From the NCBI GenBank assembly GCA_021513715.1, contig CP084167.1, forward strand, positions 96,001 through 160,000: DNA of 64,000 bases, written 5' to 3'. Below are positions 5,512-32,305 of this stretch, piece by piece. Numbering within the stretch: the first letter of the stretch is position 1; each line of letters opens with the position of its first letter. The notes under the pieces were generated by a model. It saw only the letters and a list, made by a program, of their open reading frames with translations, did no database searches and was not told where the DNA came from. The translations under genes and the position numbers were made by a program. The DNA comes from Candidatus Heimdallarchaeum endolithica. Its GTDB lineage: Archaea > Asgardarchaeota > Heimdallarchaeia > Heimdallarchaeales > Heimdallarchaeaceae.

Positions 5512-7350
5512 TTACAATTCTAGTTTGTATTTTGTATCTTTTAGTTTTTTATTTTTCTTTTTGTTATTGTTAAACACTTTAGCAAATATTCCTCCAATAA
5601 CCCATTGACCTAAAATTGAACTTATCCCCAAACTTATTGTATAAGGAGGTTTTATCAAAGGAATATTTACAGAACTATTTGTTTGATTTTCATTTTGGAA
5701 AGAAAAATCTTCTATTGGATTAAGTCTATAAGTTATATTTTTGAGAGAAACATAGGTTCCTGAGCCATAAATTGTTAGTTTAATTTTTACCTCATTATAT
5801 CCTTGATAAATTTTAATATTTTCAGCAACAGATATCCTACCAGTTTCATTAAAAATTTTACTTATTGAACTATTTACTCCTATTGTTATTCCAACATTTA
5901 TTCTATCAAAAACTTCATCATAATCTGTAAGAAGAGTAAAAGACAAATTAAAAACATAATCAATTATTAATGAATAATCGTTGAAAAATACATCATAGTA
6001 ATTTAGAATGACTGCACCTAGTTGGGGAGTATAAACACTTTTCTCTGATTCTACTTCCCTAAATATACCTTTAGAAGACATTTTTGGGATTTCTGAAACA
6101 GTGAGATTAGAAGAATTGTAAATTAAGATTTTTCCTTTCCCACTATGTTCTAATTTACTATAAAAATTAACCAACAATTGTTTATTGTAGGTGTAAGTAT
6201 AGGTATTTATTTCTATTATCTCTTCTTCTCCTTGTTCATAACTCATTACTTTTCCTGTATAAATGGTATATATCCCAGAAATAATTTTAAATTCAATATA
6301 AGGAGTTACAGTTGCACCTTCAAAACCACAACTAAGATTTAAGTTTATTATTAACTCCTTAGAACTCTGCTCATTTTTTAAAATAGATATATCAAAAGTT
6401 AAATCTATTTTATCTCCTTCCCACTCTTGAGAATCAAGAATGTCTTTTTCTTTAATTGTTTCTTCTTTCTCAACTTCAATACTTAAACTAAAGCCATCTA
6501 AATGTATGATGTCAGAGCTATATCCTACAGTAAAAGAGATATTCAAAATATTTAGGTCATTTCCACAATCTAATGAGAATAATATTGTATTAAATCCAGA
6601 GCTAAAATCCTTTTCTGTAAGGTTTGAACCTATTTGAAAAGTTATTTTTCTTTCTAGTGAAGTAAACTCGTTTGTATTAAATGTAAAATTTAACTTAATT
6701 TTTGAAATGTTTGAAGTTTTTACATAGAAAAATGATTTTGCAGAAAAAGATTTTTTAGAAAAAGAATTGCCAGAAAAAGAAATAGAATAAGGAATAACAT
6801 CTGGATTGATTTTTTCTTCTGTTTCCAATGAAGGAATATCATATGAATGAAGACTTATTGTCTTGAAAAGAGTTAAATTTCCTTCTTTTCCTATGAAGCA
6901 TTGTCCTTCAAAATATATACTAATCTTGGTTTCTTCTTCAATATTCTCGCAATAAAGGCTTTTTGTAAGAGAATGAATATTATTATCTTGTAAAAGTTTG
7001 TCAATTCTAAAACTGATATTTATCAGATCATTAAAAGTTATACACAATTTTAAGCTATCATCCAAAGCTAAACTTCCACTTGTTTTAAATTTAATTTCAA
7101 AACCATATAAGCCATTTATTGAAAGATTCTGAATGAAAGAATAAGTATATTTAGAAAGCTTATCTGTAAAATTAAAGACTATATCATGAGGTATAACTAT
7201 AGTTGATTGAAGTTCATTTTTAACCTGATTATTTTCTTTATCAACTATATCATATGCTTTTACAAAATATAGTGGGGATAAGCAAAAAGTTACTATTATA
7301 ACTACAACTAAAGAAGTAAATAGTAGATTATCTCTTTTCATAAGCTTCAA
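5512..7350 (-). CDS. Exported beta-rich protein with signal peptide and C-terminal TM anchor
   Basis: N-terminal hydrophobic segment, roughly four beta-sandwich-like units, C-terminal TM followed by a Lys-rich tail. Confidence 0.7.
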   Translation of the reverse strand: MKLMKRDNLLFTSLVVVIIVTFCLSPLYFVKAYDIVDKENNQVKNELQSTIVIPHDIVFNFTDKLSKYTYSFIQNLSINGLYGFEIKFKTSGSLALDDSLKLCITFNDLINISFRIDKLLQDNNIHSLTKSLYCENIEEETKISIYFEGQCFIGKEGNLTLFKTISLHSYDIPSLETEEKINPDVIPYSISFSGNSFSKKSFSAKSFFYVKTSNISKIKLNFTFNTNEFTSLERKITFQIGSNLTEKDFSSGFNTILFSLDCGNDLNILNISFTVGYSSDIIHLDGFSLSIEVEKEETIKEKDILDSQEWEGDKIDLTFDISILKNEQSSKELIINLNLSCGFEGATVTPYIEFKIISGIYTIYTGKVMSYEQGEEEIIEINTYTYTYNKQLLVNFYSKLEHSGKGKILIYNSSNLTVSEIPKMSSKGIFREVESEKSVYTPQLGAVILNYYDVFFNDYSLIIDYVFNLSFTLLTDYDEVFDRINVGITIGVNSSISKIFNETGRISVAENIKIYQGYNEVKIKLTIYGSGTYVSLKNITYRLNPIEDFSFQNENQTNSSVNIPLIKPPYTISLGISSILGQWVIGGIFAKVFNNNKKKNKKLKDTKYKLEL

Positions 7351-7369
7351 ATGATAATAAAAAAAATCA

Positions 7370-7385
7370 TTTATAAACCGAGAAA
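7370..7385 (-). promoter_or_regulatory. Cluster promoter motif TTTCTC-GG-TTTATAAA
   Basis: 20-29 bp upstream of the 7350/7341 start. Confidence 0.6.
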
Positions 7386-7391
7386 TATTTG

Positions 7392-31587: not shown

Positions 31588-31592
31588 TCATT

Positions 31593-31609
31593 TTTCCCTA
31601 ATTTATAAA
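31593..31609 (+). promoter_or_regulatory. Cluster promoter motif TTTCCC-TAA-TTTATAAA
   Basis: 25 bp upstream of ATG 31634. Confidence 0.7.
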
Positions 31610-31633
31610 CAATTATAGATATTGAATTATTGA

Positions 31634-32305
31634 ATGAAATTTTCAATTCTAGTAAAAACTGAAAATTATGAAGAATTTTTATTAAAAAAACAAGATAAGA
31701 TTGAACAATTGAAACTACTTATTAATACAGAAAGTAGAAAAGCTACCTTAGTTATTCTTTCTTCAACTAAAAAAAAAGAAGTAGCAAAAACCATTCAAGA
31801 ATTAGATTTTCAAAAAACTATTTCTAAATTAGTAAATCTTGGTTATTTTTCAGATATTAATCCTGTTTCTACTATTTTATCTGATAAACAATTTCTTTGT
31901 TTCTACCTTCACGATATTTTAGGTTTCAAATCAGAAGAGATAGCAAATTTTACCCATAATAGTCCCTCTACCATAAGAGATCATTTATCTAATGCTAGAA
32001 AGAGGATATTTGTTTTTAATCAGAAATTAAAGAAGATGAATTTAGAGTATACAATTCTCAATAATCTTTCTGCAATACCTTTTGAATCTTTAAAAAGCTT
32101 AACTTTTAATATGACTATTTCTATTGAAGATATTAGGAAAATTGTTTCCTTAAACCCATTTTTCAAAATTATGATAAGAGATTCTAAAGAATCTCCATTT
32201 AAGCTTTATACATCTATTAACAGTTTACCAGAGGAAAAAGTCCTTTTTCTTTTACTACCACTCACAAATATGTTTGAAAAGGTTATTTATCTAGAAAAAA
32301 AATAA
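31634..32305 (+). CDS. Protein with central sigma70 region-4 (ECF-type) HTH
   Basis: LSDKQFLCFYLHDILGFKSEEIANFTHNSPSTIRDHLSNARKRI matches the Sigma70_r4_2 pattern. Confidence 0.7.
   Translation: MKFSILVKTENYEEFLLKKQDKIEQLKLLINTESRKATLVILSSTKKKEVAKTIQELDFQKTISKLVNLGYFSDINPVSTILSDKQFLCFYLHDILGFKSEEIANFTHNSPSTIRDHLSNARKRIFVFNQKLKKMNLEYTILNNLSAIPFESLKSLTFNMTISIEDIRKIVSLNPFFKIMIRDSKESPFKLYTSINSLPEEKVLFLLLPLTNMFEKVIYLEKK

Follow-up and report, generated by a model that had tools for sequence, protein, structure and literature searches.

The 64,000-nucleotide window analysed here (G000:C1:96001-160000) comes from Candidatus Heimdallarchaeum endolithica, whose genome (G000) is one closed contig of 3,326,783 bp with a completeness of 92.6% by markers. 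Between positions 5512 and 32305 lies a block of 18 open reading frames (ORFs), most of them on the minus strand, with intergenic gaps of -17 to 99 bp and two exceptions of 441 and 333 bp. The block joins surface and membrane proteins, recombination enzymes and putative regulators (Table 1), and the sequence comparisons described below show a conserved and apparently jointly regulated set. A first-pass annotation of the window had described it as a tightly packed candidate regulon for DNA exchange and recombination, and both the packing and the chromosomal setting were recovered.

Most of the individual gene assignments in that annotation hold as well. RadA, the RadB-like and Hel308-like proteins, and the 2121-aa immunoglobulin (Ig)-repeat protein were all recovered by family scans. 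The 157-aa protein proposed as a PD-(D/E)XK nuclease keeps the invariant E..R-x-D..ExE residues, though it has no Pfam match, and the two multi-pass proteins of 212 and 246 aa align as paralogues (hhalign 86%, E 5e-6). The XPD helicase had been placed beyond an insert of insertion sequence (IS) and restriction-modification (R-M) genes, and the insert indeed consists of an IS fragment and an N4/N6-methyltransferase/BsaWI pair; the start of XPD, however, lies 149 bp to the left of the window edge, which corrects the window-only view. As had been noted, the scans revealed no integrase, relaxase or capsid gene, nor any tRNA; att sites and the patchy occurrence typical of integrative and conjugative elements or proviruses are likewise not found at the block. 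The gene of the pseudo-ATPase described below is present in 26 of 30 genomes of the Heimdallarchaeaceae (family f1, by NCBI protein names), at one locus per genome, and the best explanation is a vertically inherited, chromosomal block.

Table 1. Genes and sequence elements of the block and its surroundings (window coordinates unless marked G000).
Feature	Position	Strand	Remarks
XPD/Rad3-type helicase, 604 aa in full	1..1665 (start G000:95851)	+	Regulon promoter, rank 2
IS fragment and type II R-M pair (N4/N6 methylase, BsaWI-like nuclease)	1832-5321		Between XPD and block
612-aa surface protein	5512..7350	-	Signal-bearing, C-terminally hydrophobic, beta-rich; own regulon promoter
Promoter element of 612-aa gene	7364..7385	-	Pyrimidine tract and TATA; score 13.8, 0/200 shuffles
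Hel308/Ski2-like helicase paralogue with SWIM finger	7392..9503	-	
HerA/VirB4-fold pseudo-ATPase, 1049 aa	9517..12666	-	
Promoter element of pseudo-ATPase and helicase unit	12684..12705	-	Score 13.9
157-aa PD-(D/E)XK-type nuclease	12724..13197	-	ExE variant
Promoter element of nuclease gene	13230..13251	-	Score 13.8
RadB-like small RecA-fold ATPase	13254..13886	-	Walker A intact
212-aa multi-pass membrane protein	13870..14508	-	Strongly degenerate M50B-like
470-aa protein	14518..15930	-	Two transmembrane (TM) helices and cytoplasmic alpha/beta domain
Promoter element of 470/212/RadB unit	15959..15980	-	Score 14.4
2121-aa Ig-repeat surface protein	15988..22353	-	Signal peptide and C-terminal TM anchor
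246-aa multi-pass M50B/DUF3267-like protein	22350..23090	-	
440-aa orphan helical protein	23083..24405	-	
Direct repeat upstream of 440-aa gene	24470..24487	-	Two WCTGCAA-type heptamers, period 11
384-aa 7-TM gene	24847-26001		No regulon promoter; met in this genus only
RadA paralogue	26082..27170	-	Walker A/B intact
Back-to-back promoters	27195..27251	- and +	radA 27195-27216 (-), score 18.1; 83-aa gene 27230-27251 (+), score 14.3
83-aa protein	27270..27521	+	Regulon promoter
600-aa Hef/FANCM-like pseudo-helicase	27529..29331	-	Promoter 29353-29374
133-aa protein	29392..29793	-	True start probably some codons inside the listed frame; best promoter score of all, 29787-29808
245-aa paralogue of 440-aa protein	30127..30864	-	Promoter 30878-30899
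209-aa coiled/helical protein	30918..31547	-	Promoter 31565-31586
223-aa protein, sigma70 region-4-type helix-turn-helix (HTH)	31634..32305	+	Promoter 31594-31615

Joint regulation is indicated by a shared promoter class. Upstream regions of the module genes in other genera carry a T/C-rich tract abutting the TATA box. The usual B recognition element (BRE) of the source genome is A-rich (A at -3 in 55%), and in the block this pyrimidine tract takes its place. A promoter model of 22 columns, derived exclusively from 19 upstream sequences of other genera, was applied to the 2,586 genes of the genome: nine of the 15 best-ranked genes belong to the block, and 11 of the 20 block genes are among the best 50 (Fisher p 6.5e-15), where any other run of 20 genes contributes at most three. 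Twelve genes, from XPD through the 223-aa HTH gene, bear the site, 11 of them at 35-54 nt from the listed start, and each of the 12 sites is matched by 0-3 of 200 of its own shuffles (above at least 98.5%). With 25 control models only 0-3 block genes reach the top 50, compared to 12. When sites are picked by TATA alone, the BRE-position part of the model still separates the block from other TATA genes (p 5e-8). Both the shuffles and the strand controls take the AT-richness of the block into account. Among 449 genes of other genera, 19 of the 22 high scorers that were not used for training are homologous to motif-bearing or block genes, and a genome from another family (G031) carries the site at three module genes. 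A sigma-70 promoter scan remained at chance level and is not relevant here. The regulon proposed by the first-pass annotation thereby has direct sequence support, and this pyrimidine-BRE promoter class would be, within the reach of the literature searches made, a regulon not yet described in Asgard archaea.

Membership of the class is selective. Site-less genes of the block stand behind a site-bearing gene (Hel308-SWIM, RadB and the 212-aa gene) or behind the 440-aa gene (the 246-aa and Ig genes); site-less outsiders are the R-M pair, the 384-aa gene, ArsR and PadR. The 384-aa gene appears to lie outside the module, because it lacks the shared promoter and is confined to this genus in the genomes examined. 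The housekeeping copies of RadA, Hel308, Hef and HerA and the inserted R-M genes have no such promoter, and neither the pilus loci nor the TFB paralogues, nurA/herA/mre11/rad50 or an intact 919-aa ATPase belong to the class. Unlinked members in the same genome include a second 212-aa paralogue (G000:376700), a PD-(D/E)XK protein (2241056) and, to the left of the window (L129), a LuxC-like acyl-CoA reductase (G000:91743-93173, promoter rank 3) and a probable LuxE-like acyl-protein synthetase recognized by motif only (G000:81397-82542, promoter rank 6). Orthologues of the LuxC-like gene in G012 and G017 carry the promoter too and are located close to dead Hef/XPD, and paralogues related to the 245-aa protein bear it in G002 and G012.

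The first-pass annotation expected the block to hold together in related genomes, and the envelope and recombination genes do stay clustered across Heimdallarchaeia and beyond. Three sub-blocks make up the block in f1; the way they are joined differs among genomes, and the window has all of them together: sub-block A holds the 612-aa, 470-aa, 212-aa, RadB, nuclease, pseudo-ATPase and Hel308-SWIM genes, usually with RadA and Ig; sub-block B the 440-aa and 246-aa genes, which are neighbours throughout the family; and sub-block C the dead Hef and XPD, adjacent in G002, G010, G012, G014, G017, G021 and G022. Reshuffled versions of the cluster are found in families f2, f6, f5 and f7, in Borrarchaeum, in G068, G083, G062 and the closed genome G094, and in Baldrarchaeia. 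Order and strand vary across these lineages; the envelope and recombination genes remain together.

Contigs of Methanomethylicota (TACK) hold a reduced cluster of a 2-TM gene, the pseudo-ATPase, a RadA-like protein, a stand-alone SWIM-like protein and a RadB-like protein. A pattern scan of GTDB with the Methanomethylicota protein gave one chance match only, so the evidence for its presence in TACK consists of NCBI names and two metagenome contigs. Of the module's markers, the 157-aa nuclease can be traced most widely; its profile has no match in the searched genomes of f11 (0/76), f14 (0/68), f3 (0/11) and f8 (0/4); a broad pseudo-ATPase profile finds no clear orthologue in G255, G230, G081, G061 and G036. 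Homologues of the 612-aa protein lie within the cluster in f1, f2, f6 and f9, and the Ig protein in f1, f3, f4, f5, f6 and f20. The Borrarchaeum cluster contains a 397-aa anchored protein with a match to the CBM-like PF14683, probably the counterpart of the 612-aa protein by position and topology. In other genomes, though not in the window, genes for YdjM-like membrane hydrolases occur by the Ig gene or in the cluster (L052-L057, L064:8126-8563, L108). The literature was searched for the cluster and its parts, and no account of the cluster was found.

The recombination enzymes of the block form a second set, since housekeeping copies of RadA, Hel308 and Hef lie elsewhere in the genome. The RadA paralogue (Rad51 match, E 9e-51) is not the best-scoring RadA, which is found at G000:3027547, and the RadB-like protein matches TIGR02237 (E 7e-12). 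The Hel308-like helicase scores below the Hel308 equivalog cut-off and has an added SWIM finger, which marks it as a paralogue of the housekeeping enzyme at G000:3117567. Catalytic motifs are kept in all three: Walker A is intact in the RadB-like protein, and Walker A, DExH and motif VI are intact in seven of seven Hel308-SWIM copies checked. The 600-aa protein annotated as Hef-like does belong to that family (PRK13766, E 2e-16), but its catalytic motifs are gone. The block protein has neither Walker A, DEAH and motif VI nor a nuclease motif, and the three helicase motifs are absent from all eight dead copies checked; the intact Hef is encoded at G000:1920976. Parts of the dead Hef recur in a broken second copy with numerous stops (window 55960-56616, plus strand; 52-55% identity), at a distance of 27 kb to the full-length copy of the block. 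Two nurA-herA pairs, one of them with mre11-rad50, are also present elsewhere in the genome.

Where the RadB-like gene occurs, a SWIM finger accompanies it, as part of the helicase in Asgard archaea and as a separate protein in Methanomethylicota (L074:12478-13384). This pairing of SWIM and RadB-like proteins is reminiscent of that of SWS1 and SWSAP1 (Shu) in eukaryotes. The source genome encodes at least four RadA-family and at least six TFB-like genes, numbers above the usual for an archaeon with 3.3 Mb. A second RadA clade in Heimdall- and Gerdarchaea has already been published, as a duplication without mention of neighbourhood or synteny (PMC12722695).

The 1049-aa protein had been annotated as HerA/VirB4-like, and its predicted structure, poor overall (pLDDT 48.6) and used for the fold call alone, agrees with this: HerA is the best Foldseek match (4d2i, E 1e-6), with VirB4 at E 2e-5 (4ag5/4ag6). 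A profile search from the protein likewise reaches DUF87 proteins. Its architecture comprises an N-terminal alpha/beta domain, the HerA/VirB4 fold, a winged helix near residues 615-690 and a helical tail. None of 18 homologues of this pseudo-ATPase has the Walker A lysine, from the source genome to a TACK contig; the motif (GxxxxGK[ST]) is present in all 30 intact control proteins. In a quick tree with long branches, the dead and intact families fall on separate sides (SH-aLRT 92 for the dead family), which tentatively suggests that the dead family is monophyletic. One protein with an intact Walker A, G062c119, groups with the intact proteins. Short homologues from Baldrarchaeia and Methanomethylicota have CedD as their top NCBIfam match, far below the cut-off. 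This Walker-A-less family, common to Asgard archaea and a TACK lineage, appears to be undescribed.

The 470-aa protein is probably the membrane anchor of the pseudo-ATPase, because in other lineages a 2-TM gene directly precedes the short ATPase-domain gene (Baldrarchaeia, Methanomethylicota, G094) or TM segments are fused to the pseudo-ATPase itself (G068, G097). Its cytoplasmic domain has no significant match in Foldseek, VIA-align or Atlas; the best VIA-align scores (Z 6-7) are with type III secretion system chaperone- or palm-like folds. It may be homologous to the N-terminal part of VirB4, but neither these searches nor an hhalign comparison of the N-terminal domains, which gave no match, lends this support. 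For the 212-aa and 246-aa proteins the first-pass annotation had suggested a comparison with CedA and VirB proteins. With 4-5 TM helices and M50B-like motifs, they resemble M50B/DUF3267 proteins and not CedA or VirB6, and no NCBIfam model matches either of them. Their zinc motif HExxH is broken (H-x-x-x-H without the Glu, or worse) in the window and in most homologues, being intact solely in a 325-aa paralogue of G068 (Peptidase_M50, E 4e-4). Both look like degenerate proteases.

Putative dedicated regulators had also been noted, with the Sulfolobales factor TFB3 as the known parallel; a TFB identity is unsupported. The 440-aa and 245-aa proteins align to TFB by hhalign with E 0.01 when 12 rows are used and with E 0.37 when the set is extended, and they have no Pfam TFIIB match and no PDB match. 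They belong to an orphan family, of which each f1 genome has some three paralogues. The 440-aa protein is a candidate for the top-level regulator. The direct repeat upstream of its gene, probably an operator, is conserved in six genomes, among them G001 (same genus; 3,081,793 bp), G002, G012, G014 and G021. The 223-aa HTH protein is probably a downstream regulator. Within the Borrarchaeum cluster lies a TFB paralogue that has diverged and carries an HTH insertion (L064:6733-8091; L071:17344-18702; hhalign to TFB 97%). As for the surface proteins, the 612-aa protein has no identity in Pfam or Atlas; a fusexin-like nature is unsupported, given its few cysteines and no Atlas match above 0.77.

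The explanation tentatively favoured for this locus is that the regulon, induced as a whole, builds a non-motor platform for recombination, anchored in the membrane at the cell surface and most likely serving the DNA of contacting cells. A signal acting at the direct repeat would turn on the 440-aa protein. Jointly with the 223-aa HTH protein and the 245-aa paralogue, this protein would direct transcription to the pyrimidine-BRE promoters. The Ig and 612-aa proteins would then make contact with cells or surfaces, and the pseudo-proteases and the 2-TM protein would form a membrane hub holding the pseudo-ATPase. The latter may tether DNA by its winged helix without pumping it, and the nuclease, helicases, RadB and RadA would process and recombine the tethered DNA. 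Partner DNA would enter by a route not encoded in the block, for example through cytoplasmic bridges, in vesicles or by means of an unlinked motor.

Several observations weigh against this explanation. DNA exchange between cells is plausible but putative, and both the crossing of a membrane by DNA and the physical interactions between the parts are predictions. Neither in the block nor in the regulon was a channel, a pilin or a working motor seen. The promoter signal is weak or altered outside f1 and f2 (f5, f6 and deeper lineages), and in f3 and f4 only the envelope part is found together, with the DNA genes not adjacent, which means that the two halves are separable. The block has a GC content of 27.4%, compared to 30.8% for the genome, and is among its most AT-rich regions. 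Finally, the LuxC- and LuxE-like members would fit a developmental or envelope-remodelling programme.

This last point leads to a regulon for stress, dormancy or differentiation, in which surface and lipids are remodelled and the cell tethers and repairs its own chromosomes at the membrane, with no exchange. The same regulon evidence applies to it, and it would account for the LuxC- and LuxE-like members, for the YdjM-like hydrolases of several clusters and for the lack of a channel or motor. A 200-kDa Ig adhesin-like protein and a full duplicate kit are nevertheless hard to justify for self-repair in a genome that already has intact housekeeping RadA, Hel308, Hef and HerA-NurA-Mre11-Rad50. 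In addition, NurA, HerA, Mre11 and Rad50 are without the promoter, so that this is not a general damage regulon. This explanation is rather unlikely, but it ranks only a little below the favoured one.

The first-pass annotation had inferred a DNA-transfer programme analogous to that of Sulfolobales but of different build. A machine of the Ced type is disfavoured by the missing Walker A lysine, the missing channel and the absence of the promoter from the pilus genes; the data argue against a self-contained Ced-like pump. Such an import machine, similar to Ced or a type IV secretion system (T4SS), could still be built if the dead ATPase paired, in the manner of CedB with CedD, with the unlinked 919-aa HerA/VirB4 protein (G000:2121098-2123857; L072:6098-8857) and the 212-aa and 246-aa proteins acted as an unorthodox pore. 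The 919-aa protein has two TM segments, an N-terminal domain and an intact Walker A, is kept in 25 of 28 f1 genomes with relatives in most Asgard families, and counts CedD among its NCBIfam matches (E 8e-9); moreover, the split layout of 2-TM protein and ATPase resembles CedB/CedD (PMC11868833). Against this, its gene never adjoins the module, has a promoter rank of about 410 and has relatives where the module is not found (70/76 genomes of f11, where the nuclease occurs in 0/76). The dead and intact ATPases lie on different sides of the tree, the putative pore proteins are M50B-like, and no pilin was found among the block's ORFs, none of at least 75 aa being small and hydrophobic, with no genome-wide pilin profile search made. 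VirB6 (PF04610) was not found in the genome, although an archaeal pore that has diverged could escape this profile elsewhere. An import machine of this kind is improbable. No plasmid relatives of the 919-aa ATPase were found, and its function is apparently unstudied.

It is very unlikely that the block is a mobile element in decay or after domestication, or else a loose neighbourhood of relic enzymes without joint function. Such an origin would suit the several pseudo-enzymes, the low GC content, the variable insertion site that separates XPD from the 612-aa gene, and the fast divergence of several genes, at 72-83% between the two Heimdallarchaeum species compared to about 90% average amino acid identity for the genomes (PMC8813620). 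Decay, on the other hand, sits badly with ORFs that stay full-length at one locus over class-level distances, with a Walker-A-less state common to the TACK lineage too, and with conserved individual promoters and no integrase, att site or tRNA. At the insertion site, G001 has a gene for a 2646-aa surface protein in place of the IS/R-M insert, and the IS fragment exists in dozens of copies across the source genome.

Defence against viruses or plasmids by an island of the HerA and nuclease type, suggested by the HerA-fold protein adjoining a PD-(D/E)XK nuclease, the adjacent R-M pair and the defence HerA structures among the Foldseek matches, is the least probable of all, given the near-universal fixed presence of the module in f1 and f6, unlike that of patchy defence systems, the dead ATPase, an R-M pair that lacks the promoter and is absent from the same site in G001, and RadA, RadB and Ig proteins, which are not known as parts of defence systems.

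Among known systems, the Ups pili and Ced DNA import of Sulfolobales, under Orc1-2/TFB3, are the kind that the module would work like, although the module belongs to no known family. For envelope genes and recombination genes that share a special, weak-BRE promoter, the Sulfolobus ups regulon, controlled by a short T/C-rich box, is the sole known precedent (PMC5817253). Both systems are chromosomal, with envelope genes co-regulated by a short non-palindromic, T/C-rich, weak-BRE element (PMC9905601, PMC11823120, PMC11868833, PMC5817253), and both include a HerA/VirB4-family protein, in the block probably membrane-anchored, with a layout of TM, N-terminal domain and ATPase. The block motif looks similar to the Sulfolobus ANTTTC box, but abuts the TATA box, whereas the Sulfolobus box lies at -44 to -39, and homology is not claimed. 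Unlike Ups/Ced, the block has no CedA/VirB6 pore or VirB2-like pilin and no type IV pilus in its regulon; its ATPase is catalytically degenerate, contact would depend on a giant Ig protein, the locus itself encodes a recombination kit of its own, and TFB3 identity is unsupported.

Other comparisons are more distant. Ted from Thermoproteales also has HerA/VirB4-family genes sharing a locus with recombination genes (rad50, herA) (PMC9905601), but possesses the pilin TedC, the pore TedA and an active TedB, whereas the partners in the block are RadA, RadB, Hel308-SWIM, XPD and Hef. Natural transformation in Methanococcus, which relies on a type IV pilus and the TctA-like MMJJ_13030 (PMC10133366), shares with bacterial competence and the module the concept that surface contact and recombination are combined in one inducible programme; here, in contrast, neither ComEC nor TctA has a match in the genome and the pilus genes are outside the regulon. 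HerA-NurA, which acts in end resection, and the HerA-nuclease defence pairs have a HerA fold adjoining a nuclease as well, but in the block protein Walker A is missing and the fold is extended by a winged helix and an N-terminal domain, and canonical nurA-herA genes are found elsewhere.

A gene exchange or dedicated recombination state in archaea related to eukaryotes bears on the origin of sex. The boldest version would be an ancient mating-like programme of Asgard and TACK archaea, in which a dedicated promoter class would turn on an Ig adhesin, a pseudo-enzyme hub tethering chromosomes where cells touch, and reserved recombinases (RadA paralogue, RadB, Hel308-SWIM), the chromosomes of partner cells recombining with no secretion-type pump; this is a long shot, but if true it would be a prokaryotic parallel, among the relatives of eukaryotes, to a specialized, meiosis-like recombination state. 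Even without DNA exchange, the pyrimidine-BRE promoter class and the Walker-A-less HerA/VirB4 family remain of note, and the locus offers a defined gene set with a mapped promoter signature, open to tests in Heimdallarchaeia enrichments or cultures that are already available.

Beyond the block, a fragmented IS605/TnpB-like element lies at window 37622-39083 (minus strand); G001 has a 484-aa IS605/TnpB-like copy elsewhere, within the edge of its block. Towards the right end, from 58642 to beyond 64000 (minus strand), the window encodes a giant surface protein with a beta-helix and TSP3 calcium-binding repeats, and it is these repeats, not a toxin, that produce its Binary_toxB match.

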